Shown: in pieces, positions 17,811 to 63,358 of the stretch
How positions within the stretch are numbered: the first letter of the stretch is position 1
Layout of the letters: each line of letters opens with the position of its first letter
Virus record (IMG/VR): IMGVR_UViG_3300045988_078326
DNA length: 64,000 nucleotides
DNA from: a virus
Reading direction: 5' to 3' (one strand)
The notes under the pieces: model-generated
What the model was told of the DNA's origin: nothing
Seen by the model: only the letters and a program-made list of their open reading frames with translations
Database searches by the model: none
Program-made: the position numbers and the translations under genes

Positions 17811-17824
17811 TTGGTCCAAATAAA

Positions 17825-17879: not shown

Positions 17880-17880
17880 T

Positions 17881-30196: not shown

Positions 30197-30229
30197 TTTA
30201 GGCCCTCCTTTATACTCTCTAAATATAAA

Positions 30230-32140: not shown

Positions 32141-32154
32141 AGTTTGACACCTCC

Positions 32155-34666: not shown

Positions 34667-34670
34667 AATA

Positions 34671-37448: not shown

Positions 37449-37536
37449 AGTTAACGCCTCCTTTTTCTCATCTAAGATATTTAAAAAATCTTATATCATT
37501 AATAAAGATAATTGGCCAAAAGGCTGACGAGTTTTA

Positions 37537-37905: not shown

Positions 37906-37930
37906 AATTAAAACTCCTTTTTCTCTTATG

Positions 37931-38666: not shown

Positions 38667-38679
38667 ATATAATCACTCC

Positions 38680-42600: not shown

Positions 42601-42624
42601 ATTCTTCCTCCTTTTACTCATAGG

Positions 42625-42657
42625 GAATAATAGGGGAGATTTTCTCCCCTATTATTC
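42625..42657 (-). other. stable stem-loop at the 3' end of the tape-measure gene
   Basis: 15-bp perfect inverted repeat gaataataggggaga/tctcccctattattc with a 3-nt loop. It overlaps the tape-measure stop codon and has no adjacent U-run. Confidence 0.35.
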
Positions 42658-45600
42658 TTTTCTTCTATTCGCCCATTGAGTAGCATCATCCGCCAAACTA
42701 CGAATAGCATCTTGAATTTCATCAGAAGATGTCGCATTGGGGAATTCAACTCGTTCAATATTTATATTTGGCTAAACCACATTATCTGTCGGCGCAATCT
42801 AGGTATTAGTTCCCAATCTAGATGCCATAATACTAGAAATAGATAATGCATTTCCATCAAGAGTTTTCTCAATAGAGGCTATAAAACTAGGTCCAAAGGC
42901 TCTCATAGCAGAGACCGCCGCCAAGATATTTTTCGTATCCTCTTGATTTAAAACTAGCTCTTTTTCATGCAAGAAAGCTAATTTAGCATTATCAAATTCT
43001 CCGGTATATCCTCCAGTATCGAAACCACTTATCTAACTTTCTTTTAGCCATCCATAGGCAGAATTATTAGACTGCACATGGATTGGATATGGTCTACCCT
43101 TAGCTATATTTGTTATTCTAACCTTTTTACCTGGACCACGTCTACCAGCAGGATCAGTACCATAAGAGTCATGATAATAAGTTCCGCCAATATAAGTAAC
43201 TTCGTCTCCTACTTCGGGGATTCCATTACCCCCTCCGGTTCCACTGCTAGAAGACCCACTACCACTATTACCTGAGTTACCTTTATCAGTATCAGAAGAT
43301 TGACTTGAATCAGAAGAAGGTAAGTCATCTTTATCTATACTTCCTGCACTTTCTATTGTGCTACCAGCAGCTCTAGCGGCTTCTTCAAGCGCTCTTATAT
43401 ATTCTCTGACTGAATCGGCCATATCTAAATACTCTTGACTTAAATCTTGAATAGTGCTTATCTATTCTAACATCTAAGTAACGGCATTTGATCCAGCCTC
43501 AGAGCACAAATCAGTAGAAGTTGAAACATCGTCGATATAATCTTTTAAATCATCGAGACTTGTTCCAGTCTAATCGGCTACTCCAGAAACAGTAGTTTGA
43601 TAATCTTCCATCGCTCCGCTAGCTTCATCCATTGCATTAGATAAAAACTCTTCAAAGTTACCAGCATTAGCGGTCATATTGGCTAAGTCTTTCGCAAATA
43701 CATTATCAAATAGGTCAATAAGTTTTGTATTACTTCCTACTATATCTTGAATCTACTCGTTATCTGATAGTAACAAATCAATAATGCTAGAGCCAGAGTT
43801 AGCTATAATATCTTGAATTTCTTGACTTGTAATTCCAGTTAGGTCACTTACCTCGTCTCCCGCAACAATAGCCATATCAATTAAAGCTTTATTGCCGGCT
43901 TCGGTCATATCCTAAATAGCGATCTATTTTTCGTTCTCTAGGTCCTTAACCTTCTGCGTATAATAAGAATAGATTTCTTGCGCGCGGGCAGATCTTTCTT
44001 CATCAGTCAAGGTCATATCAGAATAGATTTCTTTTATCTTATCTTGACATTCTTGCCAAGTAGAAATAATCTCTCCTGTAACATCCTCTACCTACTGCTT
44101 TGCTATATTATACCACTCATTCTCCGCATCAAGCAAATTCTATTCTGCGTCAGCTATCTGGCTCGCATCTGCGGTGTATTGATAATTCCAGTTACCTTGA
44201 CTATCTCTCACTAGTCTAAGTTGATTTTTCGCATTTTGAGCATCTTCAAGTGCCATCTAAGCCTAAAGAACATTATACTTAGCTTCGAGAATTTCTAAAT
44301 CGTATTCAGATAAGGTATTGTTCTCTCTACGTATATCAATTTCCTCTTGTAGCTATTTTAACTAATCTTTCATCTTAGAGTTAGTAGCCTTATCAATATC
44401 CTGTTGTAGTTTATTATACCAAGAAGATACCTCATACGCTTCATTTACTTTATCTAAATATCTATCCTCTTGCTCGATATAATGATCAAACTTGTCTTGT
44501 AGTAGATCTAATCCTACTCCGCCAGAAACAGCCTATCCAAATTCATATACTGCTCTCTCAATAGCTTGAGTATACATCTCCTAGGCAGTTTCCATAGCGG
44601 CTTGCGCAGAACTTAACATAGCCTCTTGTGCTTCATTATATTCTTCTAGTAGAGCATCTCTATTAGCTTTTAGACCATCATATGCAGGATCCGTTTCATC
44701 TCCGCCTAATGCGTCTAGTGCAGCTTGAGCTTCCAATAGTTCTTGACGGATTCCATCGTACCATTGTTTATTTAGCTGCGCATTGGCGACCTGAGCCTTC
44801 ATAGTTTCTTCGCTTACTTCCTGAAGCTACTCAAATCCTTCCTCAGTCTTATATGTAACTCCCTAAAGAGCATATAGTTCTTTGATAAGTCCTAGAACGG
44901 ATTCATTATGGTCAAGCTAATCAGTAAAAGCTGCAAATCTTTCTGACGCGGCATCTAATGCATCTGGTAGCATTTCTTCAAGACCTTCTACCCAATCAAG
45001 CAAAGCTTCCGCAGTAGAAATCATTTTACCTTGCAAGTCAGATAACTTGCTTACAATCTCATCAATATTAGTCGCATCTGTGGCATTAGCTAATTCTTCC
45101 TGATAACTTTTAAGGGCTTCTTCATAGCTCTTGATGATTTCCTTATTCTCATTCATACTGTTTTCATCAATACGAGCGACTTCCATTCCATGAGTTAGTT
45201 CATCACCAAAAGATTCTGCTATTTGTCTTGTTAGCTCATTAACCGCATCTTTAGCATCTTTTATATCTATTGCAACTTCAAGTTTATATTCAATCTAATT
45301 TAATCTATTATCTGCAATATTTCTTTCTAGCTCTTCTTGCTCATCTTTTACATCTTGAATCTTGTCAAGAGTTTCTTCATATTGAGCTAAAGCGTCCTAA
45401 CGAGCCTAGAATAATTCATCAGCAACTTCTTTTTGTAATTGCCAACTATCATATTCTGCCTATCTAGCCTCCTATTCATCTTTAGTAAGACTGCTAAACA
45501 TTAATAAGAAAGCGTTGTAATCGGTTAAGAAGTTATTATTATAATCATCAACAATAGATTGAAGAACGTCTTGATAACCTTCAATTTCTCCATTTTCATC

Positions 45601-48600
45601 AAAAGTAAGAGAATTGTTGAATAATCCTTGAAGGTCTGATCTATCTTTCTCAAGATAGGTCTCAGCCTCATCAAGCATCTTATTATAATTAGCTTGCTGT
45701 TTTTCTAACTCTTGAAGCTCTTTCTAATAAGCCTATAATTTCTTCGCTCCATATGCTCTATCTATATTATTACCAATATCATCTAATAAATTATTCTAAT
45801 TCTCAATCTCACGAGTTATTTCATGGTATCTATCTTCTATATCTTCAAGAGTTTTTTCATCTTCGGCATCATATTTTGTACCTTCGTTATCTCCGCCAGA
45901 ATCTTTATTTCTAATATTGTCTGTTGCTATTCTATTCGGATCTAATGCTCCATCAGGATCAAATGCAAATGGCTCCTAACCATAATCAAAAATACCATTC
46001 TATCCAGATCCCGTACCCTAAGAAGATAAATATGAACCAGCTTCTTTTAGAGCATTAGTAAAATTACCAATAGCATCTCCGCCCTCGCCGGAAATTTTTA
46101 ATCCTAGAGTGGGAAGCTCAAAAGGAAGATCCGCTTTGCCAGCTAGCCAATCATCTATCTATAATTTTCCCCATGATTTTACATATGGAGTAAAACCTAA
46201 ATCATATTCAAAATTAGAAATTAAATCTCCTAGTGCTGTTAGAACAGCCCCAGCCGCCTATGAAGTTGAGCTAATTGTATTAGCACTCTCGGACATAGTA
46301 GAATTAATAACGGCTCCAGCGATACTAGCATCAGTGGACATTGCTTGCATTAAAGCATCGGCGCTTGTATCTAGTCCATTTGCTAGCGTTATTCCCTAAT
46401 CAAGAACACCCTAGAGAATCCTTTTATAAGATTCGTTATTAGTCTATTCTAGTCCTACGAGCTATTGTCCAATACTTGATACCATTGCCTAAAATTCTGT
46501 CGCAGTAGTATCGAAATTATTATCAATGGTAAAATCTATCGCTCCAAAGCTATCAGCATAGTTTAATAAGTAATCGTAATTATCTACTAAACTATTTACA
46601 ATTCCCATCATGTCTTGGGCATCGCTCACTTGTTTTTCCCAAGTATTTAAATTAGATATATCAGACATGGTTCTGGCATATTCTTCCTCAGAAATTGTAG
46701 TTTGATCTACTCCATCTTTGAGTTCCCAAACTCCGTCTGTATTTTTTGTAATATTCTAATTTAATTTAGACTAAGCCGTAATTAATGCTTTCGTGGCAGC
46801 GATTGTTCCCTCATAGTAATCATCCATATTGATGGTTCCAGATTTAAACTTTTTATTTAAATCTATCAGTCCATCCCCTATAGACCCGGTTGCAGCGACC
46901 AAAGTAGCTTCATATAAATCAGTTTCTTCTATATTATCGTCAATTTCTTCGTTTAATCTATGAAAGCCTGCATTTATATTACTTAATCTTTTATTAATCG
47001 TATCAAAATATTCTTGGGCAGATATTGCCCCCTCCTGATACGCTTTCGCATTATCACTAAGGGCCTATGTTCTCTCTTTAAACAATTCTACATCAGTTTC
47101 ACTTGTAAACGTATAATCATTTATTGCATTTGAATCACTGGCTCGCGATACTAATTCATCCCACATATTAATATAATTCTAGAGATAATCAGTATTTACC
47201 CCATATTTTTCTTTCATAGATTCTATTGTAGCATCAAGAATTTGCTCTTCTTGTCGTTCAGAATCTAAAAATGTCTAAAGAGACTAATTTGTTAGTTTAT
47301 ACGCATCTCCAACTTTAACAATATACTAAGCATATCTTTCATCTGCATTAATGAGTTCTTGAACTTGATCCATGGTTAGATAGCCTTCTTGATCCTTATA
47401 TGACTATAAGGCAGATTCAAGAGCACTCTAACTATTATTTAATTCTTCCAATATAGATTTTAAGTCGTCTATTCCCTTTACATTTATATTTATTTCATTA
47501 ATTTTATAATTATCTAAAAATTCCTATAATTCTTCAACCGTATCAAAATTATCTATATTGACATCCATAAGGATTTCCCAATCCTCATTTGATAGAGAAT
47601 CAAAATCAAAATCACTAAATTTACTTTCTACTTTTTCCTTTGCTTCATCTACTCTGCTATCTACAAAAGTTAAAAACTCATCTACGCTGACTCCAGCTAA
47701 CATTAATTCATTTTTAATGGATTCTGTTATCAAACCAGAGGCTGCACTAATATCACTACTAGCCAAAGTGCTATAAAGCTAAGTAGAAATCTATTTAACT
47801 GATTGGTTATCTAAAATTGGTTTTAATATAACCTCTTCATATTCACTTTGACTGCCATAAAGATTTTTACGAATAAGAGATAACTGCTCCTGCATTGAAG
47901 CTATCATTTCTGGATTATACTCAATAACCCCGTCAGTAACAGATTTAATATATGCAGCATAATCATCTTCTGCTTGCTATATAGCTTCAGAATTGTCAGT
48001 TACCCACTGTGCCGTAATCTATTCATTTTGAGTAACCCAATCTTGATACTCTACTAAGTAATCACGATAGGCATCAGAATTTTTATCAAGGCCCTAAGTA
48101 ATACTATTAAACCAAGTGTCTGCATCTACGTACTAATCTTTATAAGTATATCTATTCTATTCAAGTACAGATTGAGCATTTGGATCATTTAAATCCATGC
48201 TCTATTCTAACTCTTTAAACCAGTCCTAGTCTCCATTGTATTCATTCCAACTTCTCCACTAGGTTAAATCTGGTCCTCCTGCCAAACTCTTAGTAGATTT
48301 ATCATAATTCTCTTCGATAGTTTTTGCCTAGGCTTTTTGCGCTTCTTCTGTTAACTTCTCTTGTAACTCAACCTATCTCTACAAAGAAGATTCTGCCTAT
48401 TTAAGTTTTTCTAATTCTTCTTGTTCGACTATACTTAAAGAATCCTAATTATTTAATTCTTCTATTCTATCTTTCGTTGTCTATAATTCAGAATTTAAAG
48501 ATTCTAATGCAGATTTCTAATCCTCATAAGCCTAGGTAGCATTAGATATTTTTTCTCTAGCCTCTTCTTCCGTAACAATAATGAGAGAAATAACATTAAC

Positions 48601-51351
48601 AAGTAAGGTTACTCCCAAAGTGATTAACCCAATAAGTGGTAAAGCAGTTGAGATAGCCGCACCAACAGTAGTAATACCAGCAGCCGCAGTTTTAGCTGAA
48701 GCTCCAACTGTTAAATACGATATTGCAGTTAAACTATTTTGTAATGCCTGCTTTTTAAACAAGGTAGAGATTGTTGGTAATAACATTCCAAAGTTAGTAA
48801 GAATAACTGTAAAATCTTCAACAGTAAACTCTCCCTCTTTCACAGAATTTGTAAAAGTAGAGAACATGGAATTAATACTTGTCATTCCCATTGTAACTTG
48901 CGATAAAGTGGTTCCTACTTTAACCAATGTCTCAGCCCAGTCTAAAGTAGCATATCTGTTATTCTTTAACCCCTCACTAATTTCTTTTGTTTTCTACTGT
49001 AATAATTCTAATCCCTATCTAAAAGCCTCAGCACTAATTTCATTATTCTTAAAAGCTGCTACAAGACCACTTAGATCATTTTTAAATTTAACAGAACCAT
49101 CACCTAAAGAAGTAATAACTCTATTTAATGCAGCAACGTCTGATTCTGCCCCCTTTAATGCTTCCTAAAACTACTAAGAGGTAGTAAGATATTCTATTAT
49201 CTCCTAATTTGTTGCATCTTGAGCACCTTCAAAAAGATTTAGGCTTCTTACTAAATTAATAGTTTCTTGAGAGATTTCATTGGTTCCAGAACCAACTAAT
49301 TTCTATACTTGCTAAAACTTAGAAAGACTTACGCTCGCCACTTTTAATTTGTCAATTAAACTCTAAAGGGCTTGCTAATTTGTCTTTGAACTATAGAGAA
49401 TTTCTGTTTCTATGTCCTCATAAAAAGAAAATTTATTTTCATCTTCTAACACAAGCGCCGATAGTAGATTATCCTTCCATTTTTTATTGGGAACTAAACG
49501 CTCAGACAAACTATTTGTATAAGCTGTAATAAGTTCATCTGATTTGCTAACCTACTACCCAATTAAATTAACCTATGTCTATAAAACCTTTACTCTATCT
49601 AAATCTTGTTGTAAAATACCAGCCTAGCGCTCAGATAGTTGTGTGGCCGCAGCGGACGCTTCTCCTTCAAGCTAAACAATCTAAGCTTGAGTATTTACCA
49701 TCTATCCCTAAATAGTATTATCAAGTGCGGATTTCGCGATAATATCAGCCATCTATGCGGCTTCAGTTCTCAAAGTTTGCGCTCTATCCTTTTCTCTCTA
49801 TCCGATAATACCAAGATTAGAAGCAATATCTCTCATTCCTTGCGCAATCTTATCACCAAAAGCCTTATTCATCAGTAAAGCAGTTGTTGCTAAAACGCCA
49901 GACATTCCGCCTAAACCATCAATAATATCAGCAGTTGTACTTAAAATAGGACTAAGAACATCATCTACCCCAATATAAAAATCAGGATTTATTAAACTAT
50001 CATAAATATCTTCCGCGGATGCTCTTACTCTATCTCTTGCCGCCTCCCAAGATTCAGCATAAATATCTGCTTGTTCTTGTAGAGATCCTTCTGCTCCATA
50101 AGAACTCTCCAAATTTTCCTAGAAGAAATCCCAGTTATCCATAAGAGCAATAAGACGAGTATATTGACGTACTCCAGCTACAGTCTGTGCTAATGCAATC
50201 TATTGATCATTAGATAGAGTTTCCCATTTCTCTCCCATTTCATCTAATAAAGTATCCATAGTCTTGATTTCTCCATTAACGTCAAAGATGTTAATTCCAA
50301 CTTTATCAAGAGCCTAAGAATATTTATTTAGAGTAGTTCCATCATCAAGTGTTTCTCCAAGATTTAAGCCCTGAATACGTGCAAATAATGTTCTAAATGC
50401 AGTACCTACAGTATTCGCAGATTCACGAGTTGTAGCAGTAACAGTAGCAAGCGCAGATGCGGCATACTCATAACTCAAACCTACCGTCTCTGCAACTGCG
50501 GCAAACTGCTAGATACCTTCTGAAATTTCATCAGAGCTTGATGCAGTATCTGCACCTAAGCGCACCATGACGTCTGCATAATACTCAAGACTTTTACTTC
50601 CATCATAGAAGTTATTCCATACCGCAGTTAACTAGTCAGATGCAGTCTAAGCGCTAACACCCGCGGCGTTTGCCATTTTTATAGTAGTTTCAGTTCTATC
50701 TAAAACTTCCTACTCAGTAAGGCCCTACTGATAGTAAATCAGAGCTGCGTCAGTATAATCTACTGTAGTTGTACTCAATGCCTTAGCTGCTTCGTTAGCC
50801 TACTTAGCAAAAACAGCCATATCCTCGGCAGAATTTTCAGTAACTATACGAATGTTTGTCAGAGATTCATTTAAATCTTTTGCATAACCATAAGCTGTCT
50901 CTAAAGAGCCAATAAAACCCTATAAAGTGCTTGCTGTAATCTACCAACGAACCGTATTTTTCATTGTAATCCACAAATCAGACATTAACTTATTAGTTCT
51001 GATTAACGGAGTTTCCGCCGCCATAATAGCCTGAGAAAGATTTAAGAATGTTTCTTGCCCCTAAATTCCCAGTTTGCTTAGTTGATTATAATAGTCTGTT
51101 AAAGTCTTTCCGCTTTTTACTAAACTATCATTAAAAGCAGTCAAATCTAACTTACCTGAATTTCCATTAGTAGCCATCTAAAGATTACGGCTCAATTCAA
51201 GGGCCGCCAAAGATGCCTACTGAAGTTCACTAGAAATAGATGGCTAATTGCCTAATTTCTATAAACTATTTATAACTTCATTAACAGAGGTTTTTAGCTG
51301 ACTCGCGTCAGCGGTAAACCCAATCTAATAGTTTAATCTTTTATTAGCCAC
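42652..51351 (-). CDS. tape measure protein (about 2900 aa) with a C-terminal globular domain
   Basis: GTG 51349-51351 after AAAGGAGGAAAAGGACT. Seven ORF fragments (49798..50112, 48532..48927, 47524..47766, 45472..45678, 44917..45186, 44581..44802, 43033..43422) all lie in the same frame and are joined by sense TAGs. It is a coiled-coil-rich protein with TM-like segments. The C-terminal region is ...VTYIGGTYYHDSYGTDPAGRRGPGKKVRITN... Ends at TAA 42652-42654. Confidence 0.6.
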
Positions 51352-51388: not shown

Positions 51389-51423
51389 AAGGCTCTTGAG
51401 AATTATATCTTCTCAAGAGCCTT
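51389..51423 (-). terminator. rho-independent terminator/attenuator between the chaperone and tape-measure genes
   Basis: Perfect 14-bp stem aaggctcttgagaa/ttctcaagagcctt with a 7-nt loop, followed on the minus strand by AUUUGUUUUAU. Confidence 0.5.
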
Positions 51424-51461: not shown

Positions 51462-51992
51462 TTAATCTTTTCCAACCACATCTTTAATTACTGATAGTGT
51501 TTCAAGATTTTCACCATTCTTAATCTTTTCTAGCATATCAGTAATATATGTATCAAGACCAGAAGCATTTTTATTCATCATCTGAATAATGCCGGCCGCA
51601 GAACTATTATATCTTGAAATATCGCTTATAGTATCCTTAACTAAATCCTCAATAAAAGATAGTTCCTCCACCGGAATAATATCACGAATTGCATCAATTA
51701 CACCGTTTGTCTCAAGAGTGTCATAGGTTTTTGCGATATTTTCATGCACATCTTCTGGCTCAAAAGTAATTCCGCCATACCATCTGCATATAGCAATAGC
51801 AAAATAGGTCTCCACTCTAACTGGACTAAAACAGCCAGTTGCCTCATCTATTGATAAATCAGTGACAAACATAATAAGATTTGTTTTATCAGCAATAGGA
51901 AGATAATTAGCCACAGACAAAATCTTATCTGCTCCAACCTTTACTTCTGTATATTTAACTTTAGGCTCAAGCCCCAAATCTTTAAAAGTCAT
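51462..51992 (-). CDS. XkdN-like tail assembly chaperone
   Basis: 176 aa with RBS GGAGATTTTACA. It sits immediately before the tape-measure gene, in the same position and size class as PBSX XkdN-family chaperones. No TAG codons. Confidence 0.5.
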   Translation of the reverse strand: MTFKDLGLEPKVKYTEVKVGADKILSVANYLPIADKTNLIMFVTDLSIDEATGCFSPVRVETYFAIAICRWYGGITFEPEDVHENIAKTYDTLETNGVIDAIRDIIPVEELSFIEDLVKDTISDISRYNSSAAGIIQMMNKNASGLDTYITDMLEKIKNGENLETLSVIKDVVGKD

Positions 51993-52055
51993 TGTAAAAT
52001 CTCCTTTATCTCATTTATATTTTTATTATACTAGAAAAATTAACTATTGTCAAGT

Positions 52056-53492
52056 TTAATATGCGTATTTAGATAGTATATTATTATTTAAAGTTGCTGC
52101 AATAGTTAATTTATTTATAACTCCATTGACTATATCACTACGAGTAATTGCATCTAATATGTTTGCTCCAGAATTACCATACCACTTATTACCTAAAACG
52201 CCTTCTCCACCGATAGAAACCACTTCATGAGCACTATTTCTAACAATATCATCACAGATATTATTAATAATTCGCTAGATAGAAAATACTCTACCATTAA
52301 CTATGATAAACTATCCTAAATGGCCTTTCTATGAGCTAAACTCTCCTGACTAAATCCACTAATTAAAGAAAGATGCCGCGACAGAGGCTCGTATATTATT
52401 AAATGATTCTTCAAAATCAGCTCCAGTATATCTGTGAGCAATCATATTATAAGCAAGATATTTTTCTGGCTAACCAGAAAAATATTCTCCAACATTCATA
52501 CTTGAAGAAGCAGAAATTTTATTCTAAGATACTTTCTTATTTTGCCATCTTGCATTTACATTTGTCCCTATTTCTATATTAAAAGTCTAATTACCCTTGG
52601 TTACTTGTAAACTAAAAGTATCATTATTAAATATATTTGTAGTACCTTTAGACTTAGAGACATTATTCTATCCTTTATCAGCCCATCTCAATTTCCCACC
52701 AGATTGCGCGATTACCTTATCTAATATACTATCCGCGGTATTAACTCCTATTGATATACCTTCTGCTACTATCGCCTAGCTAATCTAATTTCCAATAACT
52801 TTTCTAAATATATAAGCAATAGTATTAGCAAAAGAACGAGAATTTACTGATCCCTATTCACTTAAACGAGTAACAGCTCTATTTAAAGAATCTATTACAT
52901 CTTTCGCGATATTTATATCCCCTTCCCCAACTGCCATAACATAACTTTGCTATGCCTAATCTATCTAAAAACTAGTTCCTATTAGCTATCTTCCAATCTA
53001 TGTTAAAGCATCAAGAACATTAACATTTATCATATTCGCTTTCGTTAAAGCTGATATAAGTAATCTAAAGAAATCATTCACTCTCTATATTTCCGGTGTA
53101 CCAGTTGATAACAAGTTATTAAAACTTCCAGCCTATTGCAATATAGTATTATAGTTTTCAAAATCTACCTATCCGCCAGCTAATTCAATACCTTCATTAA
53201 TACCAGCGGCAATCTAATCAAGAGTAGAATCCAATAGAGTTCCCATTTCTAGATCACTTAGAATCTTTAATCCACTTGCTGCGGAAGGCGCCTTTAGCTG
53301 CATCTATTCTTGAATTGAGGAGATCTAAGCCTCAATTCCCGCGGTCTATGCTTTATTTACTGCCTATTGATACTATGCGCTGAATAAGGTATTCGCTGAT
53401 TCTACGTCGCCATATTCTCTCAAATGGCTACTGTGATATACAATATAGTTAATAGACCAACGCTAAACATAATCATAAATATCAATATCCAT
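52056..53492 (-). CDS. extremely TAG-rich structural protein in the tail-tube position (about 478 aa)
   Basis: RBS GGAGTAATTGGAGTT before ATG 53490-53492. Hand translation is continuous (MDIDIYDYV(Q)RWSINYIVYHSS...LTIAATLNNNILSKYAY), with about 40-45 sense TAGs against about 8 CAA/CAG codons. Ends at TAA 52056-52058. No standard-code ORF longer than 60 aa is seen here. Confidence 0.5.
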
Positions 53493-53520
53493 AACTCCAA
53501 TTACTCCTTATAAAAAGAAA

Positions 53521-53545
53521 AAGGGAGGACATTAAGTCCTCCCTT
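53521..53545 (-). terminator. rho-independent terminator/attenuator after the sheath gene
   Basis: aagggaggac/gtcctccctt is a perfect 10-bp stem, followed on the minus strand by UUUUCUUUUU. Confidence 0.5.
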
Positions 53546-53549
53546 TAGA

Positions 53550-54944
53550 TTAAATTCCGTCATCCTCGGTGACAGAGACTAACTTATTGCGGGTGCTAGT
53601 CTTAGCTTTTGCTGCGGCAGATGTAGCAAAGCTAAGTTTGTTATTAATGGTATAAGTCTTTTCAAAATCACCATTAATCTTATTAATCTTTGCGGTAATA
53701 GGAGTTGCCTGATCTTCGCTAGTAAGAATTACAAGCAATCCTTGAGCTAACTCTTCGCCGCTAACGGTTTGAGTCTTTGTATTACCTTCAATTCTTGGGT
53801 CTGTAGAGAAGTATCTCTCATAAGCTGGGTTTGTAGTTACCACATTATATTGGGTACTATCACTCTCTACTGGGATTTGCAGGCTGATCTGAGCAGCTTC
53901 TGCTATAGTATCGCCATAAGCCTCAGTGTCATAAGCCTTTCCTGTTACACTACCAGTAACATCAAGCTCTGCGGCTGTAGCACTATTAGATACGAAACTT
54001 ACAGTCACATCAGCAGCTTCGCTCTCATAAGTACCTACATTCTCAGAGCATGGCTCACGAGTTTCCTCGGTTTCACCGCTTTCATCAGTGATTACTTGAA
54101 TTGCAGCCAATACCTTATGGGTTTGGTCGAACTTGGTGTAATCAGGGAAAGCGTCCATTGTAAAGGTAAAGGTAGAAGGATCTCCGTTAGCTGCCATGCT
54201 GAATGTGAAGTTACTCTGAACTTTACAGTTAGGAATAATAAATTCAGCAGGCATATCTACGCCATCGCTCTCACGACGGAATAGAGTTGAAGCCTCAAGA
54301 TAATAGTTACCACCAAACTTATCAGCAGTAATTTCAATCATCTGTGCTCCACCGGTACGCTTTACATAGTAGTCAACTAAAACAATGGTTCCCGCAGGAA
54401 GTACGCCAGCATGAGAATAACAAGTTAAAGTTGTTTTGCCATCTTCTGTGTAACTTACAGAAACAGGAATACAAGGCTCGGCATTAACTTGACCATCATC
54501 GCCTAACACCATCACAAAGATGTCGGCAGAACGGTGATACATTTCATTATCATGGTCAGTAAATCCATTCCAGCAAGCCTTGTCTGGAACAATAATAGTA
54601 TTGGCAGTCTCAACTTCAATCTGAGAAGTCTGGTGAACATAGATAGGAGCTTCTTTTGTTGCATCAAGTAGGCCAGCACCAGAAAGAATAGAGAAGCTTT
54701 CTGGAGAAAGTAGAGCATCTTCCATTGTAAAGGTTAGAGTACGCTCACCTTCCCAAGCAATCAATCTAGAATATCCACGTCCGCCCTGCGCATATACTGT
54801 TGTTGCAGCACCCTCAAGAGTAGAGGTTCTTAAAGTGTCGAAATATAAAACTGGTTCATTTTTGTAGAACTTACGATTACCAAGGGTTTGATAACTCTTC
54901 GCACGAAGCACTACATCGCAAATCTCACGAATACCAAAACGCAT
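53550..54944 (-). CDS. contractile tail sheath protein
   Basis: 464 aa. The N-terminus ...SYQTLGNRKFYKNEPVLYFDTLRTSTLEGAATTVYAQGGRGYSRLIAWEGERTLTF resembles PBSX XkdK-type sheath proteins. RBS GGAGGAATTAGCTC. No TAG codons. Confidence 0.75.
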   Translation of the reverse strand: MRFGIREICDVVLRAKSYQTLGNRKFYKNEPVLYFDTLRTSTLEGAATTVYAQGGRGYSRLIAWEGERTLTFTMEDALLSPESFSILSGAGLLDATKEAPIYVHQTSQIEVETANTIIVPDKACWNGFTDHDNEMYHRSADIFVMVLGDDGQVNAEPCIPVSVSYTEDGKTTLTCYSHAGVLPAGTIVLVDYYVKRTGGAQMIEITADKFGGNYYLEASTLFRRESDGVDMPAEFIIPNCKVQSNFTFSMAANGDPSTFTFTMDAFPDYTKFDQTHKVLAAIQVITDESGETEETREPCSENVGTYESEAADVTVSFVSNSATAAELDVTGSVTGKAYDTEAYGDTIAEAAQISLQIPVESDSTQYNVVTTNPAYERYFSTDPRIEGNTKTQTVSGEELAQGLLVILTSEDQATPITAKINKINGDFEKTYTINNKLSFATSAAAKAKTSTRNKLVSVTEDDGI

Positions 54945-54958
54945 GAGCTAATTCCTCC

Positions 54959-55684
54959 TTAATTTTTAGGATGTATATCTCGCATCCATGATTCAACTGG
55001 TTTATCCGGTTTGCCGCCTGCAAGACGAATCCGCAGATCAACATCCCATTCAATAAATGCATTATATCTTTCCATCAAGTCAAATATCTAAAACATATTG
55101 AGATTAAGGCAATCCTCCAAGCTCATTGTCTAAGATCCAACTGTTAGGATAGATACATAACGTGTTAAAACACTTTCATTATTTCCCTTATTCTTTATTT
55201 CCGCTACTTTACGACGTCCCCGCATTAACTTCTCTGCTATTTCTTTTGCTCTATCATTCGCAGGATTATAGATAACATTATTACCTTGAAATATGCTATT
55301 TACACATAAGACCTCTTTTAATGTATCTTGGAAAATATCAAAGTTATTATCATCTATCAAAATAGGTTGCTTTTCATTCTATTTTGTTAAAATAATAGAA
55401 TTTCTCGTAAATAGTGGTATATAGTCAGGAAATAATAACGTAAGAAGCATGATAATTGCATCTTTCTTATCCTTATCCTAAGATTGTTCTAACACCTTCA
55501 TCAATACTTGAAAATTAGTTAAGGATGATGAAAGAATTTCGTCCTATATTAATGATTCTTTGTCTAAACAAAGATATTGAACTGCCATAAAAAATTTTGT
55601 CTCGCCTATAAGAGCTATTTCTTTAATGGTGGGAACATGAATAATAAGTTGTAATTCAGGAATGGGAATATCAATCCCAGCCAT
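54959..55684 (-). CDS. hypothetical virion protein upstream of the sheath gene (about 241 aa)
   Basis: ATG 55682-55684. It contains ORF 55130..55360 in frame and is joined through sense TAGs to TAA 54959-54961. Confidence 0.4.
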
Positions 55685-55700
55685 TAAAGCTAATCTATAA

Positions 55701-56237
55701 TCAGACAAGTGGATTTACCTTATCCTCATTACCACGAATTGCAAGATAGGTAAGAGACAAACCGGCAAACTCTTCATCATAAATATACGGAACAGCGGAT
55801 ACAAATTCAAGTTCTCCTATCCCAGTTAAATGAGTTTTATCCAACATTGAATCTATCTCTCCGGCTATCCTATAAGGACGCAAATCATAATCTCCTAAAT
55901 CCCAATTATCATAATGACATATAATATCTATTCCAAAGGTATTATCTCTATATTCAGGATTAGTAGAATTTCTAACCATCGTACCATAAATTAATCGCAA
56001 ATATGATTTTTCTGGCCTATCTACTTTAATTTTAGGCACAGGAGAAATTTGCTATGTTTCAATCATTTCCTTTATCATATCTCCGGTAACCGCAGGTTTA
56101 CTTTTCCAATCTCTAGTATTATAAGCTAATAACTTTAAAACATTCTAATTAGAAAGTATCCTCTCCATAATCAATGAAGCGTCTTTCTAAATTCCCAATA
56201 AACTAGATTTAGGATATTTATAGGTATTCTTTTTCAT
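55701..56237 (-). CDS. hypothetical head-tail or tail-completion protein (about 178 aa)
   Basis: RBS GGGGTGAAATTA before ATG 56235-56237. Contains ORF 55701..56039 in frame. Three sense TAGs. Confidence 0.4.
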
Positions 56238-56249
56238 TAATTTCACCCC

Positions 56250-57050
56250 TTAGAACAAAGACTCTACCACAATAACTTTTTCTAGCGTAATATTTTCTTT
56301 TTCCCATATTAGAGTGAATTGACCATGAGTAGATTTATTCCATACTAAATCTACTGCTTTATTTCCATTCGGACATAAAGTTACAGGGAAATCTTTTTCT
56401 AGTATTGACCAAGTTCCATTAGGTTCTTCAACAGAATAAGTCTCTTTTATTAAGGGCTTAATGAAAGTTTCACCTAATATTCCACTTTCTGGAGTAGGAT
56501 CAACAGGCTCAAAAACTAATCCATCTTTCATACTATTCTCAATATCGTCTGTATCTCTATTGATATAGTCCTCTTCTGCATTGACTTCAATAACATTTCT
56601 CATGCTAATATCGTCTGGAGCCTAGACTTTCCAGCACCGTCCCGCAAATAGAAATTCTTTATATCTATCAAAAGCATGAATTGTTTTCTCATTTCTTGGC
56701 ATGAGGATATTTAAACTTAAATTAGGTTTATCTAATCTCTCTTGATTTTTCTGAATAGATTCTATCTAAGTTTCAACTGGCCCTCTAATTGCCGCCCATG
56801 TTTCACACCATTTTCCATCCTAATCTTTAAATTTAATCTTATATCTACAACGTCTTATTTCTCCTCTAAAGTAAGCATCCTCGGTTATTTCTTCTAAATA
56901 GATAATCCAATAAGTCCCAGTTCTTTTCCACTCAAAGACATCTCCCGGTTCATATTTTGCCATATGATCTATTGAAATTATCTTATCATCATAATCTTGT
57001 TTTACTTTATCGGGATTAATAAGCGCTCTATATATAGGATAAATACCCAT
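56250..57050 (-). CDS. hypothetical head-tail connector region protein
   Basis: ORFs 56820..57050 and 56250..56603 share a frame and are joined by sense TAGs. It may start further upstream, near 57198. Confidence 0.35.
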
Positions 57051-57218
57051 TTCATTATCAATAGCATCTAAAGATGCATCTAATACCTAAGATGATTTTT
57101 GTACCATCTAAACTGAACAACTTTGATAAGAATACTATAACGCTTTTTGAAGAGTGCGCCATTTATCCTTTATCATTCTATCTTCTTGCCGAACGCCGCC
57201 TTGCCACTCGAGTCTTTT

Positions 57219-57453
57219 CCTCATTAATTCAAGATTCGTCATCTTTTATTACCTATGCCAATAAATCTATACATCTAAAGACTGTTTTTCGATAAATCAT
57301 AAAATCTTCTTTACATACACTTGAAGTTAAACCTTCTAATTTAGATAATAAGATAAGACCTTCGACTTTATCTTTATATATCCTAACCAAACCACTAATT
57401 TCCTCTATCATAGTATTTAAATGATTTATCCAGTCTTCATCGTTTTCCTTCAT
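57219..57453 (-). CDS. small hypothetical protein
   Basis: ORF 57253..57453 extended through a sense TAG to TGA about 57219. Confidence 0.3.
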
Positions 57454-57538
57454 TGGTATTAACTTCCATAACTAATTGATTAGCCTCTTTAAGTCTTGCT
57501 CTCTAGTATCTAATGGAAAATCAATTTCATATTTATCC

Positions 57539-58069
57539 ATCAAAAACACTCGTTTCTCTAAGAGTAGACCAATTCGACTTATAAGACCCTTCATTATCAA
57601 TTAGTTTTCTTCTTTTATAAAGACGTTGCATATGGTGGCTTTGACGCTCAGCTTCCTTCTTTAGCTCTATCAATTTTGCTAAATGATTAGCCTAAGAAGT
57701 CATTTTAAAATCTGTACCAGAATATTTCATTCTCGTCTACTCTATTGATGCTACCTAACGCTATAACCAAGTATTATACATCAATAATGCAAGAATGTTT
57801 ATTTCTTCAGTTGTTAAATGTGCGGAAAAGGCTGGAACAGCAACCGTCCCAGTCTCTTCACTAGCTATCTCAACATTGGTAAAACTATATAATGGAAATC
57901 TAGGAAATTCAAACCCTGGGAGCGCATCCATTAAAATATTATACAAATCTTTCTCGGTATCTTCCTTAGTCCATTCCATATACATATCATCAGTAATTTT
58001 ACCAAAAAATCTATCGTACACTTCTTCAAAAAGGGTAGGATCGCCCTAAATTGGATACTTATTATCCAT
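57539..58069 (-). CDS. hypothetical head-tail connector region protein (about 176 aa)
   Basis: Strong RBS TAAGGGAGGTTATAGCC before ATG 58067-58069. Contains ORF 57761..58021 in frame. Sense TAGs. Ends at TAA about 57539. Confidence 0.4.
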
Positions 58070-58088
58070 GGCTATAACCTCCCTTATC

Positions 58089-58646
58089 TTACTCGGATAT
58101 AGTTACTCTACGCTTTGGAGTATCATCACTTGCAACCGATGCTCTTCTAACAGGCTTAACCTCATTTTTAGAATTTTTTCCTTCGTCCGCGGTTAATTCC
58201 AACGCTTTAGTAACGTTAAAACCTAATTGTTTTTCTATCGCATCTCGCTTTGAAATATCATTCAAAGGAAGAGAAACCGCGTGAGCCTTAATCAAATCTT
58301 TTGTCCCATCAGGGGCAAAATCAAGAGCATCCTTGAATTCATCCAAAGAGCATGACTGCATCCACGAATCAATATCTTTCTCTTTTAACCAATATTCTGG
58401 TTCAACTTTCCCATTAATAAGATATTCAATAATTTCTTTATCATCAATTAATAGATAATTATAAATCAGCTTGCGGCCTCCGGGTGTTTGAACCAACTTT
58501 TCAAGCTCAGATACACTAATCTCTTTATGCTCACCTGGATAGAACATACGACGTACACCAAGCTCAGGCAGTTTATATACCGCGCGGCCCGCACTTTTAT
58601 TATAAACAATACACTTATCTTTCATATTATATCTCCTTTTTCTCAA
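58089..58646 (-). CDS. hypothetical protein downstream of the major capsid gene
   Basis: 185-aa ORF. The likely true start is the internal ATG about 58625 after AAAAGGAGATATAAT. Confidence 0.4.
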   Translation of the reverse strand: MRKRRYNMKDKCIVYNKSAGRAVYKLPELGVRRMFYPGEHKEISVSELEKLVQTPGGRKLIYNYLLIDDKEIIEYLINGKVEPEYWLKEKDIDSWMQSCSLDEFKDALDFAPDGTKDLIKAHAVSLPLNDISKRDAIEKQLGFNVTKALELTADEGKNSKNEVKPVRRASVASDDTPKRRVTISE

Positions 58647-58651
58647 TAAAT

Positions 58652-58684
58652 AAAGGGGATAGGGATATTTCCCTATCCCCTTTT
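58652..58684 (-). terminator. rho-independent terminator/attenuator after the major capsid gene
   Basis: Perfect 14-bp stem aaaggggataggga/tccctatccccttt with a 5-nt loop, and a U-rich run on the minus strand. Confidence 0.5.
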
Positions 58685-58686
58685 AA

Positions 58687-59739
58687 TTAACCATTATTTG
58701 GATTTGGGTTAGTATTATCAAGCTCACCTTGAAGTTCAGTATCAACGTAAGAGAAAATGTTATTTGCCATCATTACGCCAACTCCGACCTTGCGGTAAAC
58801 CTGAATATCACGAGACCAGTCGTCGTTATCATCGCGCTCGCGCACGTGAGTAGTACCCTCAAAAGCAACTTTAACAGGACGAGTATCTGCTCCACCGGGG
58901 ATAACCCAAGCATAACCAGGGTCAATCATCTTTCTAGAGTTAGTCTCATCCTCAAGGGTTTGAGGTAGAATTACCACTCTAGTTCCCTTGTAGTTAGCAA
59001 GGTATCCAGTTCCCCAATACTGATCTCTCATGTTATCAGAAATCCAAGCCTCGTTGTCTGGAATCATCTTTACTGCAAACTCACGAGTACAGTAAATAGT
59101 GGGCTGACCATAAGCACTAGCAGTATTTACAAGATAATCCATAGTAGCTTCATCAAAACCAGCAACGGCACAACGGTTTGCCGCGGGAAGCTGATTAATA
59201 GAACCCATAAGAGCTTGAGCAATCTCTCTATAAATAAGCTCTTGCATACCCTCAGTTACAATCTGAGTAAGTTCTGCGAAGTTTACTCTTCCGTCGAGGA
59301 ACTCCTCGAATCCGATACGAGCAGCTCCGCCGATAGCACTTGTACCAACTTCGAAGCTCTCAGAACCGAGCTTAAAGGTCTCGTATACGCCAGCAAGTCC
59401 CACACGAGTGATGAATTGCTTAGCACGGGTAAGTCCAGTTCTACGAGTAAATACAGGTTTATCTCCCTGTCCGAAAGTTCTAATCTCGGCAAAATTGCCA
59501 TAAGAATTGAGTAAACGATTAGGAACAACTTCATCCATAGTTTGCTCAATTAAAGAGAATAGAGTATGTTTATTTTCTCTATAAAGTTCATCTGTGCCAA
59601 CAAGCTCATTTAACTCATTGCGCAAAGTGGTGTTCAAAGCGTCGTAGCTAAAGGATTCTCCTTGATAGCTATAGGTACCAGAAGGATTTGCATTGGCGAC
59701 AGTCTTCATTAAACTAAGTAAATTAGCTTTATCTAACAT
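58687..59739 (-). CDS. major capsid protein (HK97-fold family)
   Basis: 350 aa. It sits between the scaffold and head-completion genes, with composition and length typical of Firmicutes myophage/siphophage major capsid proteins. No TAG codons. Followed by a strong terminator hairpin. Confidence 0.65.
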   Translation of the reverse strand: MLDKANLLSLMKTVANANPSGTYSYQGESFSYDALNTTLRNELNELVGTDELYRENKHTLFSLIEQTMDEVVPNRLLNSYGNFAEIRTFGQGDKPVFTRRTGLTRAKQFITRVGLAGVYETFKLGSESFEVGTSAIGGAARIGFEEFLDGRVNFAELTQIVTEGMQELIYREIAQALMGSINQLPAANRCAVAGFDEATMDYLVNTASAYGQPTIYCTREFAVKMIPDNEAWISDNMRDQYWGTGYLANYKGTRVVILPQTLEDETNSRKMIDPGYAWVIPGGADTRPVKVAFEGTTHVRERDDNDDWSRDIQVYRKVGVGVMMANNIFSYVDTELQGELDNTNPNPNNG

Positions 59740-59758: not shown

Positions 59759-60448
59759 TTAACCTACACGCTGTACTTTTACACCGGGTTGAAGATCGGG
59801 CATGGTGTATACTTTTACTACTGTAAAGATAGGATCTAAATCTCCACCCTTAGCAGAAGATTCAGTATCCTCGGTTAAATAACCATCAGTACCAATCTTT
59901 AAACGATCTCCAACAGCAAGTGAACCGGCATCAGCCTTAATAGTATTAGTTGTCCAAATATCACCAATACTAATCTTAATTACACGTGGAACCATTTTAG
60001 TTCCTTCTGGCATCAAAGCTGGATAAGTAAATGTTTCCATATTCTTTTTATATGCTACGTTACTACCTTCACGTACAGCTTCACCAGTATAGTCATTAAT
60101 GGTAGCGAGTGTAGAAACGGTCTGTCCGATTGGGCTATAAACACGAGCGTTATAGTTATCTTTAATCATAGCAAAATCGGCATCAGTCTCACGATCTCTA
60201 TAAATTTTTACCTCATTGAATACCATCATCCAAGCACCAGAAGTAGCCTCTGTGCTAAAATCACATACACCCTTAGCATAGTCATACTTTACGAATTGAC
60301 CATTCTCAAGAAGGGTGATTGTGCTAGCAGCAGGAAGCTGGGCATATACCTGACCATTTCTTGGAGCGGAAAGATGGTTTGGTTCTACTTGACCATATCC
60401 ATATTGGACAAAAGTAGCATTACCTAATCTTTTAGAACTCTTAGCCAT
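59759..60448 (-). CDS. capsid-associated protein of unknown function
   Basis: 229-aa ORF between the scaffold and major capsid genes. No TAG codons. Confidence 0.4.
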   Translation of the reverse strand: MAKSSKRLGNATFVQYGYGQVEPNHLSAPRNGQVYAQLPAASTITLLENGQFVKYDYAKGVCDFSTEATSGAWMMVFNEVKIYRDRETDADFAMIKDNYNARVYSPIGQTVSTLATINDYTGEAVREGSNVAYKKNMETFTYPALMPEGTKMVPRVIKISIGDIWTTNTIKADAGSLAVGDRLKIGTDGYLTEDTESSAKGGDLDPIFTVVKVYTMPDLQPGVKVQRVG

Positions 60449-60461
60449 TCTTTAATCCTCC

Positions 60462-61589
60462 TTAAATACTGCTCTTAGCAGTCTCACGAATTGCTTTTAC
60501 CCAATCAGGAACATTATCTGTCTCTGGATGCTCCAAATTGAAAAGTCCTTTTGGGGTCTTATCATCCTCTTCATGTTTATCCTCAAGGTTAAAGTTTACC
60601 TTATTTCTAACACAAAGAATAGATAACTTAGCTTCAATATCATCTAAAGAATAAGTGTCAATATGCTCCACGACGTCTTTCTTATCATCATCGCTAAGCA
60701 TATAGAAACTATCAATCATTTGTTGCTTATTTTGACGTTCAGCTTTGAGCTTAAACTCTTTCAATTCATCAACTTCGGTATCTAGAGTATTCTTCTCTTG
60801 CTCAAGAGCAGAATATTTACTCTCTAATTCATTAAATTTAGCAAGCAACTCTGTATATTCAGTTACATCTTCGAGATTATACTTGCCTTTCTTATCCTTA
60901 TCCTCTTTTCCCTCTTTCTCAGGGGCAGGAGTTCCAGAAGAATTTTCTTTCTCCTTGTTTTTATCCTCTGGATTAGGATTATTTTTCTCGAATTCGGTAA
61001 GTGCTTTATTCTCATTATCCATAGGTTCTTGAGAGCCTCCTTTATTAAAAGTTTCTTTTAATTGATCCATCATAGAGTATACCATAGTTTTAAGTTTCTA
61101 AAACTCTTGATTACCCTCTAAAGAAAATTGAGAACTAAATTGAGCTCCCTCGAAACAAGGCTCAACATTTTCTCCGAGAACACATAATTTCTCAATCAAT
61201 GCTTCATTGTAGATAAAGATTCTTTCATTTGTTTTTTCATCTTTTGTCCAAAATCCTGACTGATTTTTTTCATTTAATTCCATAGAATGGTTGTTTCCAT
61301 TTTCTAAAATTCTCTTAGATTCTGGATAAACACCAGTCCAAATATATACATCAGTAACTAGATATTCTCTTTCTACACCTTCATCATTGAACTTCTAAAA
61401 CCATACATTAGCGTTATCTGGAACAAATCCATAAGGTCTTGTTACATCAACAATAGCAAACTTGCCGTCTTTAATATCAATCGCTCTATTGTGACCTTCA
61501 AAATCCTTTGTCTCTTGATTAAAATAGCCAACAATAGGACTTCCCGGCAATTTACGCCCCATCTCTACAGCTACTTCCTTAGTAATCAC
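60462..61589 (-). CDS. scaffolding-like protein (acidic coiled-coil C-terminal half)
   Basis: ORFs 61395..61589, 61098..61283 and 60462..61085 share one frame and are joined by sense TAGs at 61395-61397 and 61098-61100. GTG start 61587-61589 overlaps the portal stop as GTGA. The C-terminal half is Glu/Lys-rich coiled coil. Confidence 0.5.
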
Positions 61590-63358
61590 TGTATGATTGC
61601 GGTTTGGCTGTTGACCGACATAACAAACTTTACAAACGCCTTTGCTAACTAGAGGAGAAATCTAAGTGTTCTAAATATATTCCATTGTGTTTAAAATAGG
61701 AACACTAATATGCAAGTTCAATCCCTCCTTTATGACGAACTTTCTTGATTAGCTATTGTCTTATCAGACTTTTCGCCATCTTCCTTCTTTGGCCTTCCGG
61801 CTCCATTATTGTTAGTTGAACTTGTCTATTTATTCTAAGAATTAGTATTAGATGACTAATTATTATTACCCAAATCTTTTCCGCTTCTGGTATTAGAACT
61901 CATAGGAGGAATCATAATCTCCGCCAAGTTCAATACTTCATTCTCAAACGTTAATGTAGCTAAAATGCTTGATTGAGAATGCCCTAAAGCGATTTGTGGC
62001 AACATCTTAGAATATCCTAACTGAGCGTGTTCTTTATACAACTTTGATAATTCTTTATAATTAAACTATGTTGTTTCTAACATCTCAGCTCTAAATTCAT
62101 AATGATTCTTGCGATTGAATTTTTCTACCACTCTATTTAGTAATTCTGTAAACATGAGAGGTATATCTCTAACGCTAGATTCATCAGTCAATATAGAATT
62201 TGTTACAGCAATATTTCCATCGGCATTAAACAAATTATGAGTTACACCTGAATTGTTGTAAACTGTACGTTCAACCTTTTCCAAATCGTCGGTTGTTGTA
62301 TTGGAGTTATTGTCTTTTGTATCAATTTTTTCAATATCCGCAAAAGTTGTCAATACATCTACTCCAATAGCTCTTTTAAGCATTGCAACTGCGTTATTAT
62401 GAATATCTCTGGCTTCATCAACGTCAAAAATTAAATCACCATTCTTATCAAGAGGCAACTTCTAAATGATGATTTTCAATAGTTGCTACATTGTTTTTTG
62501 ACGATCCAATTCTTGCGCCTAATCCAAATCAATAATAGAAGGAATAACTCCCGCAAGAAAGGGAAATTCATTATCGTTTAAGCTAAACTTAACTGAAACA
62601 CTAGGATCTAGAGGATACCAAACAGTTGTACTCCCCGGGTAATCTCCCTTTAATTTCCCCTACTTATAAAGAATATAAGCCTTCTATATATCTTGAGGAA
62701 AAATCTTTAATATCTGAACCTTATACTGTGGGTTTGGGAAATAAACATCAAAAAACTCAAGATTTAATTCAACAATAGGATTAGGGCCTTGGAAATATCT
62801 ATTGCGACAATATGAAGCAGGTAGCTTCTAAATGGCAAACCTATCTCCGAAGTCAACAATTATACCATAATATGCCCCTTCTTTGATGATATCTAATGAT
62901 ATATTACCAAACATTCTCTTTATATTAGATTTATCAAGATAAAGCAATACTTTAGAAAAGTCTTTTAATAACTTCTCCTTATCTTTCTGCGCGCTTACGG
63001 TATATGGGGTTATATACCAATCAAATCTGTATAAGAAAGCTAGGTATTTACATAATCTGTAATATATACCGCTACTTTCATAGAAATAATTAGAGATTTC
63101 TCTTAGAGTTCTATAATCATGCTTATAAATAGCATTTAATACGAACTTCTTATCTCCATAATTTCTATTTATTTTCTTATATGTACCTAGATTAATAAGC
63201 GCATCATCTACCGAGCGAAGCCCCACCCGCATCTTAGCATAATCAATGCTCTTATAATCTAAGTCATCTTCTTCCTCTTGCTGCTAATAGCGAGTAACGT
63301 CTTGATTTAATAAATCAAAACCTTTGGCTCTAATACTTTCTTGTCTACTCTTTAACAA
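61586..63358 (-). CDS. portal protein (about 590 aa)
   Basis: TTG 63356-63358 after GGAGGTGA. ORFs 62828..63232, 62066..62458 and 61856..62041 share a frame. It continues through sense TAGs (61856, 61835, 61826, 61749) to TGA 61586-61588. Ser/Asn-rich acidic C-terminal tail. Confidence 0.5.

Follow-up and report, generated by a model that had tools for sequence, protein, structure and literature searches.

Gut phages that use genetic code 15 read TAG as Gln, encode a tRNA(CUA) within the lineage, and keep their replication genes mostly in the standard code while their structural genes use TAG, as described by Borges et al. (10.1101/2021.08.26.457843), Devoto et al. (PMC6784885) and Yutin et al. 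(PMC7886860). Block-wise use of TAG has been described for Lak, crAss-like and phAss-1 phages (PMC6784885, PMC7886860, PMC10607447), and Borges et al. tested TAG against CAA/CAG in each gene family (10.1101/2021.08.26.457843). phAss-1, from the human gut, uses code 15 and has a siphovirus-type tail with a tape measure of ~3,000 amino acids (Babkin et al. 2023, PMC10607447; OQ749652). phAss-1 and the proposed Phassvirus group have SPbeta/EF1-like relatives, including the standard-code Enterococcus phage EF1, and the TAG-carrying open reading frames (ORFs) of phAss-1 were listed without analysis of their pattern (PMC10607447). Here we examine the distribution of TAG among the genes of IMG/VR virus record IMGVR_UViG_3300045988_078326, of which a stretch of 64 kb (35% GC), hereafter the window, was analysed. 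This phage shares with the code-15 gut phages both the decoding of TAG and the partition between replication and structural genes. In addition, three genes within its recoded late operon, encoding the predicted major capsid protein, the predicted major tail tube protein and a head protein adjacent to the capsid gene, are free of TAG.

The window belongs to a phage that decodes TAG as sense (code 15, TAG-to-Gln). Under code 11, ORFs of at least 100 codons total 57% of the window length, whereas with TAA and TGA as sole stops 60 non-overlapping genes cover 95% of it. Opposite in-frame TAG codons, 372 positions aligned with relatives hold 75 TAG, 97 CAA/CAG and 21 gaps, the others being mostly Glu, Lys and Asn codons. 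Pfam domains also run on across TAG, as does the HhH domain of DnaE directly after codon 927. The phage is a gut siphovirus related to phAss-1, within the same broad clade but of a different lineage. Like phAss-1 it comes from the human gut, and it shares 51% capsid protein identity with that phage (OQ749652); its host is probably among the Clostridia (PMC10607447). Its genome is ~147 kb (for example ENA ERZ28625867 scaffold_7), and it is very common in public assemblies, where its YorH-like protein is indexed in 1,393 blocks and the longest contig is 147 kb. A megablast search of a 9-kb late region against GenBank phages returned no match. No tRNA gene was found in the 64-kb window or in the capsid-centred loci of relatives, while one tRNA(CUA) is present in each of four IMG/VR contigs that carry a 96-97% identical capsid gene, and three are present in phAss-1. 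In these close relatives (L089 8938-9013; L085, L038 and L084) the tRNA(CUA) has an encoded CCA end and lies scattered among Met, Ser(UGA), Leu(CAA) and Cys tRNAs, beside fibre-like genes; two of the three suppressor tRNAs of phAss-1 instead lie directly upstream of NrdD.

TAG was counted against CAA plus CAG as Gln codons in each gene, and the tests were conditioned on the number of Gln codons. The late operon comprises 23 genes on the minus strand, from 29414 to the window end. TAG use is strongly heterogeneous, both among all 60 genes (chi2 = 231, df 59, P = 3e-22) and among the 23 late genes (chi2 = 74.7, df 22, P = 1e-7), and no permutation reached the observed heterogeneity. TAG accounts for 0.51 of the Gln codons in the late operon and 0.15 in the plus-strand replication block, so that the known partition into TAG-poor replication genes and TAG-rich structural genes is found in the window. 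The genes concerned are as follows.

61730-63232, minus strand: portal gene, TAG at 10 of 22 Gln codons.
60462-61685, minus strand: 407-aa gene with an acidic coiled-coil C-terminus, presumably a protease or scaffold, TAG at 4 of 17.
59759-60448, minus strand: 229-aa head-module protein in scaffold or decoration position just upstream of the capsid gene, strongly codon-adapted, TAG at 0 of 8.
58687-59739, minus strand: predicted major capsid protein gene, 350 codons with a TAA stop, codon-adapted, TAG at 0 of 13 (P = 1e-4).
58089-58625, minus strand: 178-aa gene 3' of the capsid hairpin, TAG at 0 of 3, an uninformative number of Gln codons.
54959-58069, minus strand: head-completion/connector-region genes (57533-58069, 57229-57600, which was not called, 56250-57242, 55701-56237 and 54959-55684), TAG at 40-75% of Gln codons.
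53550-54944, minus strand: predicted major tail tube protein gene, 464 codons, codon-adapted, TAG at 0 of 15 (P = 2e-5).
52056-53492, minus strand: 478-aa protein with a helical N-terminal half and an alpha/beta C-terminal part, TAG at 27 of 35 (77%) and 8 CAA/CAG.
51462-51992, minus strand: 176-aa gene in tail-assembly-chaperone position, TAG at 0 of 1.
42652-51351, minus strand: tape-measure gene of ~2,900 codons, homologous to the EF1 tape-measure region, TAG at ~104 of 204.
29414-42621, minus strand: distal tail, baseplate and fibre genes, TAG at 43-79% of Gln codons in the larger genes.
12689-14869: NrdD, TAG at 0 of 31.
DnaE: TAG at 1 of 48, at codon 927.
20884-21309: 8 TAG in 141 codons.

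Pooled, the capsid gene, the tube gene and 59759-60448 have TAG at 0 of 36 Gln codons against 163 of 322 in the other genes between 42652 and the window end (Fisher P = 6e-11). Without the TAG-free genes and 60462-61685, the 17 late genes left can be described by a common TAG fraction of 0.56 (P ~0.1). Two fibre genes (30230-32140 and 32155-32745) reach 74-79%. The gene 60462-61685 is intermediate in TAG use as well as in codon adaptation. These counts confirm most of what the initial annotation had read from the sequence: the absence of TAG from the capsid gene, the 464-codon gene and NrdD, a single TAG near codon 925 of DnaE, some nine TAG in the 140 codons of 20884-21309, and TAG-dense fibre, baseplate and tape-measure genes (50-79% of Gln codons). 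For 52056-53492 its figure of about 8 CAA/CAG was exact, while its 40-45 TAG are in fact 27. The gene 51462-51992 is indeed TAG-free, but this is uninformative because it has a single Gln codon.

The identity of the TAG-free genes matters to any explanation based on protein abundance. When PDB, Pfam and NCBIfam were searched by sequence, none of five proteins (capsid, tube, 59759-60448, the 478-aa protein and the one in chaperone position) had a direct match. With tblastn, the capsid product matches proteins annotated as major capsid proteins in Bacillus siphophages, and one member of its family matches Pfam Phage_capsid_4. The head protein 59759-60448 belongs to phrog_35301, a PHROG without assigned function. 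The initial annotation had taken 53550-54944 for a contractile-tail sheath, yet no sheath fold or family match was found; the protein has a tube/Hcp-like fold and a well-predicted C-terminal domain (residues 300-440), and the gene lies upstream of the chaperone-position and tape-measure genes. A non-contractile tail with this product as its major tube protein is thus predicted, in agreement with a tape measure of ~2,900 codons. The latter probably starts at GTG 51351, which is preceded by AAGGAGG (the alternative being ATG 51177), and its 2,900 residues would correspond to a tail of ~400 nm with several hundred tube subunits. Conversely, the label of tube that had been given to 52056-53492 does not hold: the model of this protein is of low confidence and mostly helical, without any tube-like structural match. 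The correction is important since a TAG-dense tube gene would contradict any abundance-based explanation, and the tube identity of 53550-54944 removes this apparent paradox. The label of XkdN-like chaperone for 51462-51992 is likewise unsupported, as its Pfam matches are insignificant and its PHROG has no assigned function; position suggests a chaperone role.

To follow the pattern across relatives, IMG/VR was scanned with the capsid protein, which yielded 30 loci at 97, 81, 76, ~65 and 55% identity, all of which gain coding coverage under code 15, to varying degree. Orthologues of the window late genes were mapped and their codons counted in eight lineage representatives, with capsid identities from 97% to 51%. 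Together, the capsid, tube and 59759-60448 orthologues have TAG at 0/33, 0/27, 0/31, 0/37, 0/25, 1/27, 0/37 and 0/30 Gln codons, against 12-53% in the neighbouring genes; the difference is significant in seven of the eight lineages (P from 0.01 to 4e-10) and borderline in L015 (P = 0.055). Taken separately, capsid orthologues have no TAG in nearly all lineages, those of 59759-60448 have none in seven of eight, and those of 51462-51992 range from 0/2 to 0/10 in all lineages; the capsid and tube orthologues of phAss-1 are without TAG. Meanwhile TAG positions change fast, only 38 of 64 window TAGs being kept at 97% capsid identity. The exemption is consequently maintained while TAG positions elsewhere turn over. 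In two lineages (L008 14734-15800 and L010 14820-15910) the tube ORF stops after ~310 residues, with the terminator hairpin ~100 nt further downstream, which hints that the C-terminal domain of the window tube protein has been lost there, or that a C-terminal extension is made through frameshifting or read-through.

The TAG-free late genes also stand apart in their other codons. In a principal component analysis of relative synonymous codon usage from which Gln codons were excluded, one extreme of the first component (PC1) is occupied by the capsid and tube genes together with 59759-60448 and 19708-20613. When the three late genes are pooled, they use CGT at 0.57 versus 0.18 and also favour CTT, GCT, GGT, ATT/ATC, TTC, AAC and GAC; they use ATA at 0.02 versus 0.30, and AGG, CGA, CGG, GGG, ACG, CCG and TCG are almost unused. 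Of 16 amino acids tested, 14 differ at P <= 0.03. In low-GC Gram-positive bacteria, a bias of this kind is the classic mark that translational selection leaves on highly expressed genes. The same bias is found in all eight lineages and in the standard-code EF1, with CGT at 0.80 versus 0.34 and AGA at 0.06 versus 0.40. The TAG fraction of genes is lower where the G+C content at third codon positions is higher (GC3; rho = -0.50, P = 3e-4), and it increases along PC1 (rho = 0.39, P = 0.006). DnaE and NrdD are TAG-poor yet not codon-adapted. As a separate observation from a different phage, the tRNA set of phAss-1 (L033, 59000-108999) includes Gln(CUG), Lys(CUU), Glu(CUC), Arg(ACG) and Leu(GAG), which read CAG, AAG, GAG, CGT and CTT, the codons favoured by the abundant late genes of the window; the standard-code EF1 does not show the preference for AAG, GAG and CAG.

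Chance, low Gln content or a standard-code phage as the recent source of the capsid and tube genes could in principle produce a similar picture, as the TAG-free genes do have a higher GC3 (0.24-0.33 versus about 0.22) and a lower Gln content (3.2-3.7% versus about 7% in the most TAG-dense genes). Since the tests were conditioned on Gln codon number, the pattern recurs in eight lineages, gene order is conserved as far as EF1, and the bias is of the adapted type, with rare codons absent rather than a mere shift in GC, we regard an origin of this kind as very improbable.

We consider it likely instead that TAG is a costly codon, purged from heavily translated late genes by purifying selection that depends on expression and acts over an ordinary phage expression architecture. 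TAG would be read as Gln by the suppressor tRNA(CUA) of the phage while the host presumably retains release factor 1 (RF1), so that each in-frame TAG would carry a risk of premature termination and slow down decoding, a cost expected to scale with the frequency at which the gene is translated. Selection would then keep TAG out of the major capsid protein, the major tail tube protein and the capsid-adjacent head protein, presumably present in hundreds of copies per virion. In genes for low-copy proteins (portal, tape measure, baseplate and fibres), TAG would drift to an equilibrium under AT pressure at ~55% of Gln codons. The intermediate gene 60462-61685 would reflect purging in proportion to translation load. 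Adapted codons and downstream hairpins would have been inherited from standard-code ancestors, with recoding laid over them.

The low TAG content of most replication genes, which lack codon adaptation, would be a separate effect that has been published before: these genes are presumably translated before the suppressor becomes available. The capsid and tube genes might have been kept in the standard code for the same reason, that is, to be translatable before suppressor tRNA accumulates. DnaE (1/48) and NrdD (0/31), both TAG-poor in the absence of codon adaptation, fit this published early/late model. The capsid and tube genes themselves, however, are located inside the late operon, 13-14 nt behind TAG-containing upstream genes and with no promoter of their own, and their codon usage is unlike that of early genes. 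Early synthesis of the capsid protein would bring no advantage, since its adjacent assembly partners (portal and connectors) contain TAG. Early translation thus appears an improbable reason for their lack of TAG. Within the replication block, two genes are TAG-rich islands: a RecJ-like exonuclease gene (3712-5463, plus strand, TAG at 13 of 25) and a RuvC-like resolvase gene (17331-17810, plus strand, TAG at 7 of 12), which may be expressed late. In public assemblies the RecJ protein is cut to 394 aa by standard-code gene calling.

The initial annotation had further noticed that TAG-free genes are followed by terminator hairpins. The hairpins and related signals of the late operon are listed below.

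58652-58683, minus strand: capsid hairpin, 14 bp, GC-rich, 3 nt past the capsid stop, with the tail ATTTATT, an imperfect U-tract.
53520-53546, minus strand: tube hairpin, 11-bp stem with 6 GC pairs, then TTTTCTTTTT, 3 nt past the tube-gene stop.
52025-52053, minus strand: sigma-70-type promoter, perfect TTGACA-17-TATAAT, upstream of 51462-51992.
51389-51423, minus strand: hairpin of 14 bp with tail ATTTGTTTT, between the chaperone-position and tape-measure genes.
42626-42656, minus strand: fourth hairpin, 12 bp without T-tract, overlapping the stop of the TAG-dense tape-measure gene.
29366-29413: bidirectional terminator that closes the late operon.

On the coding strand, hairpins indeed follow the capsid gene, the 464-codon gene and the chaperone-position gene. 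The tube hairpin has all the features of an intrinsic terminator, while the other two have long stems and interrupted U-tracts; from its sequence, the capsid hairpin is probably a partial terminator or a 3' stabiliser. All three recur at the same positions in relatives with changed stems, the capsid hairpin in most lineages and the tube hairpin in all, although ~100 nt further downstream in L008 and L010. A simple rule by which hairpins follow TAG-free genes is nevertheless ruled out: an energy-only scan of all gene 3' ends also picked up structures behind genes that contain TAG and, downstream of DnaE and NrdD, within coding regions. The fourth hairpin follows the TAG-dense tape-measure gene, and the gene immediately after the capsid hairpin, expected to be TAG-rich, is the TAG-free 58089-58625. 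Three of the four internal late-operon hairpins follow TAG-free genes, a nominal P of ~0.02 by hand calculation that includes one gene with a single Gln codon.

Moreover, canonical terminators are present in the standard-code EF1 after the capsid gene (15-bp stem, TTTTCTTTT) and the tube gene (13-bp stem, T8). In SPP1, whose capsid and tube proteins are required in hundreds of copies, Rho-independent terminators were predicted at 8775-8815 after gene 13 (capsid, ends 8777) and at 11255-11304 after gene 17.1* (tube, ends 11279) (PMC6316719). Since the same terminators occur in EF1 and SPP1, the hairpin architecture predates recoding and is independent of it, an ordinary and older feature of such late operons.

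Other signals in the late operon deserve mention. The gene 51462-51992 is bracketed by a strong host-type promoter and the hairpin 51389-51423, like a self-contained, possibly highly expressed unit or a moron; in each lineage examined, a near-consensus promoter occupies the same place, frequently one that has an extended -10 TG. The hairpin 42626-42656 ends 4 nt short of the following ATG. The gene that begins there is without Shine-Dalgarno sequence; as AAAGGAGG occurs just inside that gene, its true start may lie further downstream.

The positions of TAG within genes bear on whether it acts as a regulator. TAG positions along genes match those of CAA/CAG (Kolmogorov-Smirnov P = 0.70), and we looked in the window genes for the 5' enrichment that would be the sign of a translational gate and found none. 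The nucleotide that follows is more telling. U at +4 makes for the most efficient termination in bacteria. T follows 15% of in-frame TAG codons in the window versus 22% of AAG, GAG and CAG (P = 0.007), and 12% versus 22% in seven relatives (P = 0.002), with the same direction in all seven, while it follows 45% of true stop codons. The depletion of T after sense TAG suggests that read-through is selected for in competition with release factors. A is in excess after TAG (40% versus 26% after CAA/CAG), but AAG and GAG show this too, and the excess was not retained as specific to TAG.

The gene 52056-53492 is the most TAG-biased late gene of the window and is placed directly behind the tube terminator. 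Its GC3 (0.17) is the lowest among the longer scored genes (one short gene has 0.16). It has 42 detectable homologues, confined to the clade and without family assignment, and no homologue was detected when the structural region of EF1 was examined. In every lineage that has it (the window, L002, L008, L010, L016, L018 and L023), the gene is enriched in TAG above the other late genes. It is thereby the clearest candidate for an adaptive throttle, in which TAG loading would tie the yield of low-copy, late-needed or potentially harmful proteins to suppressor-tRNA supply and RF1 competition. The two fibre genes at 74-79% TAG could be read in the same way, and Borges et al. report gene families that favour recoded stops and propose regulation (10.1101/2021.08.26.457843).

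Such a throttle seems unlikely to us. The late genes outside the purged set fit a single TAG fraction, a cheap gate predicts the 5' TAG enrichment that is not seen, and avoidance of T at +4 favours read-through over stalling. TAG positions turn over quickly between close relatives (38/64 kept), and high TAG fractions go with low GC3, which is what mutation pressure would produce under weak selection. Similarly doubtful is a wider form of the same idea, in which the abundant subunits remain in the standard code and read-through of partial terminators together with TAG suppression would set virion stoichiometry, as the hairpins predate recoding. The two expression classes proposed by the initial annotation therefore survive only in part: TAG is partitioned between genes, and the TAG-free late genes encode predicted abundant virion proteins with terminator-like hairpins. 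The proposed unusual late control gated by the suppressor does not, given the hairpins of EF1 and SPP1, the TAG-free late genes being the most codon-adapted, the lack of 5' TAG excess and the avoidance of T at +4.

Several points weigh against purging by expression-dependent selection. The TAG enrichment of 52056-53492 could be adaptive throttling rather than relaxed selection, although its low GC3 fits weak selection as well. The abundance of the virion products is deduced from protein identity and codon bias, and the assignment of 58687-59739 as the major capsid protein gene follows from weak homology and operon position. Codon adaptation is judged from resemblance to the known high-expression pattern of Firmicutes and to EF1. 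The depletion of T at +4 is modest, and the eight lineages are not fully independent samples. Finally, some recoded crAss-like phages have recoded stops in capsid genes, and hence the rule is not universal (PMC7886860).

Outside the late operon, the most codon-adapted gene of the whole window is 19708-20613 (minus strand). Its 301-aa product has a single predicted membrane helix, a middle part rich in Gln and Asn, and motifs rich in Cys (CCC, and CC...C at the C-terminus), and falls in phrog_16490, which has no assigned function. As the gene is also TAG-poor (2/26), it is probably very highly expressed. Downstream of the RuvC-like gene, a 19-bp inverted repeat (17811-17880, plus strand) is followed by TTTT, and its 3' arm holds the Shine-Dalgarno sequence (AAAGGAGGA) of the next gene, with its ATG at 17881. 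This repeat could be a terminator as well as a structure that sequesters the ribosome-binding site.

If TAG is purged in this manner, stating that late genes are recoded is too coarse, for the most heavily translated genes of a recoded late operon would stay in the standard code over long evolutionary spans. This suggests that a reassigned codon remains costly even with a suppressor supplied by the phage, and a cost model leads to testable predictions on RF1 competition, read-through context and codon choice. For annotation, the capsid and tail-tube genes are called correctly by standard-code gene callers and can be used as anchors, but they mislead any code detection based on the capsid.

Compared with known systems, the result is a modest extension from known principles, the partitioning of recoded codons by gene class being already published; it reveals neither a new regulatory mechanism nor a new kind of system. 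In the literature searched, we found no report of an exemption of abundant late proteins from TAG, of a coupling between TAG and codon adaptation, or of a +4 context bias. While the papers of Borges, Devoto and Yutin put the emphasis on timing and on structural and lysis genes being enriched in recoded stops, the window adds abundant structural genes that are TAG-free. Relative to phAss-1, the window phage uses TAG more heavily, at 51% versus about 17% of late Gln codons. Its late operon can be set beside the gene order of SPP1 (portal, scaffold, capsid, connectors, tube, chaperone, tape measure), which EF1 shares where homology shows, from portal to tube and then tape measure. The abundant virion genes of SPP1 have been noted for their stop-codon use, all being UAA (PMC6316719). 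Neither SPP1 nor EF1 is recoded, and the window phage adds the TAG contrast on the same architecture. The closest parallel in principle is translational selection in highly expressed genes, where likewise a few genes with abundant products avoid rare or slow codons, and TAG behaves as the worst of these. Unlike in ordinary translational selection, the avoided codon is a reassigned stop, whose cost would come from release-factor competition and not only from tRNA scarcity.

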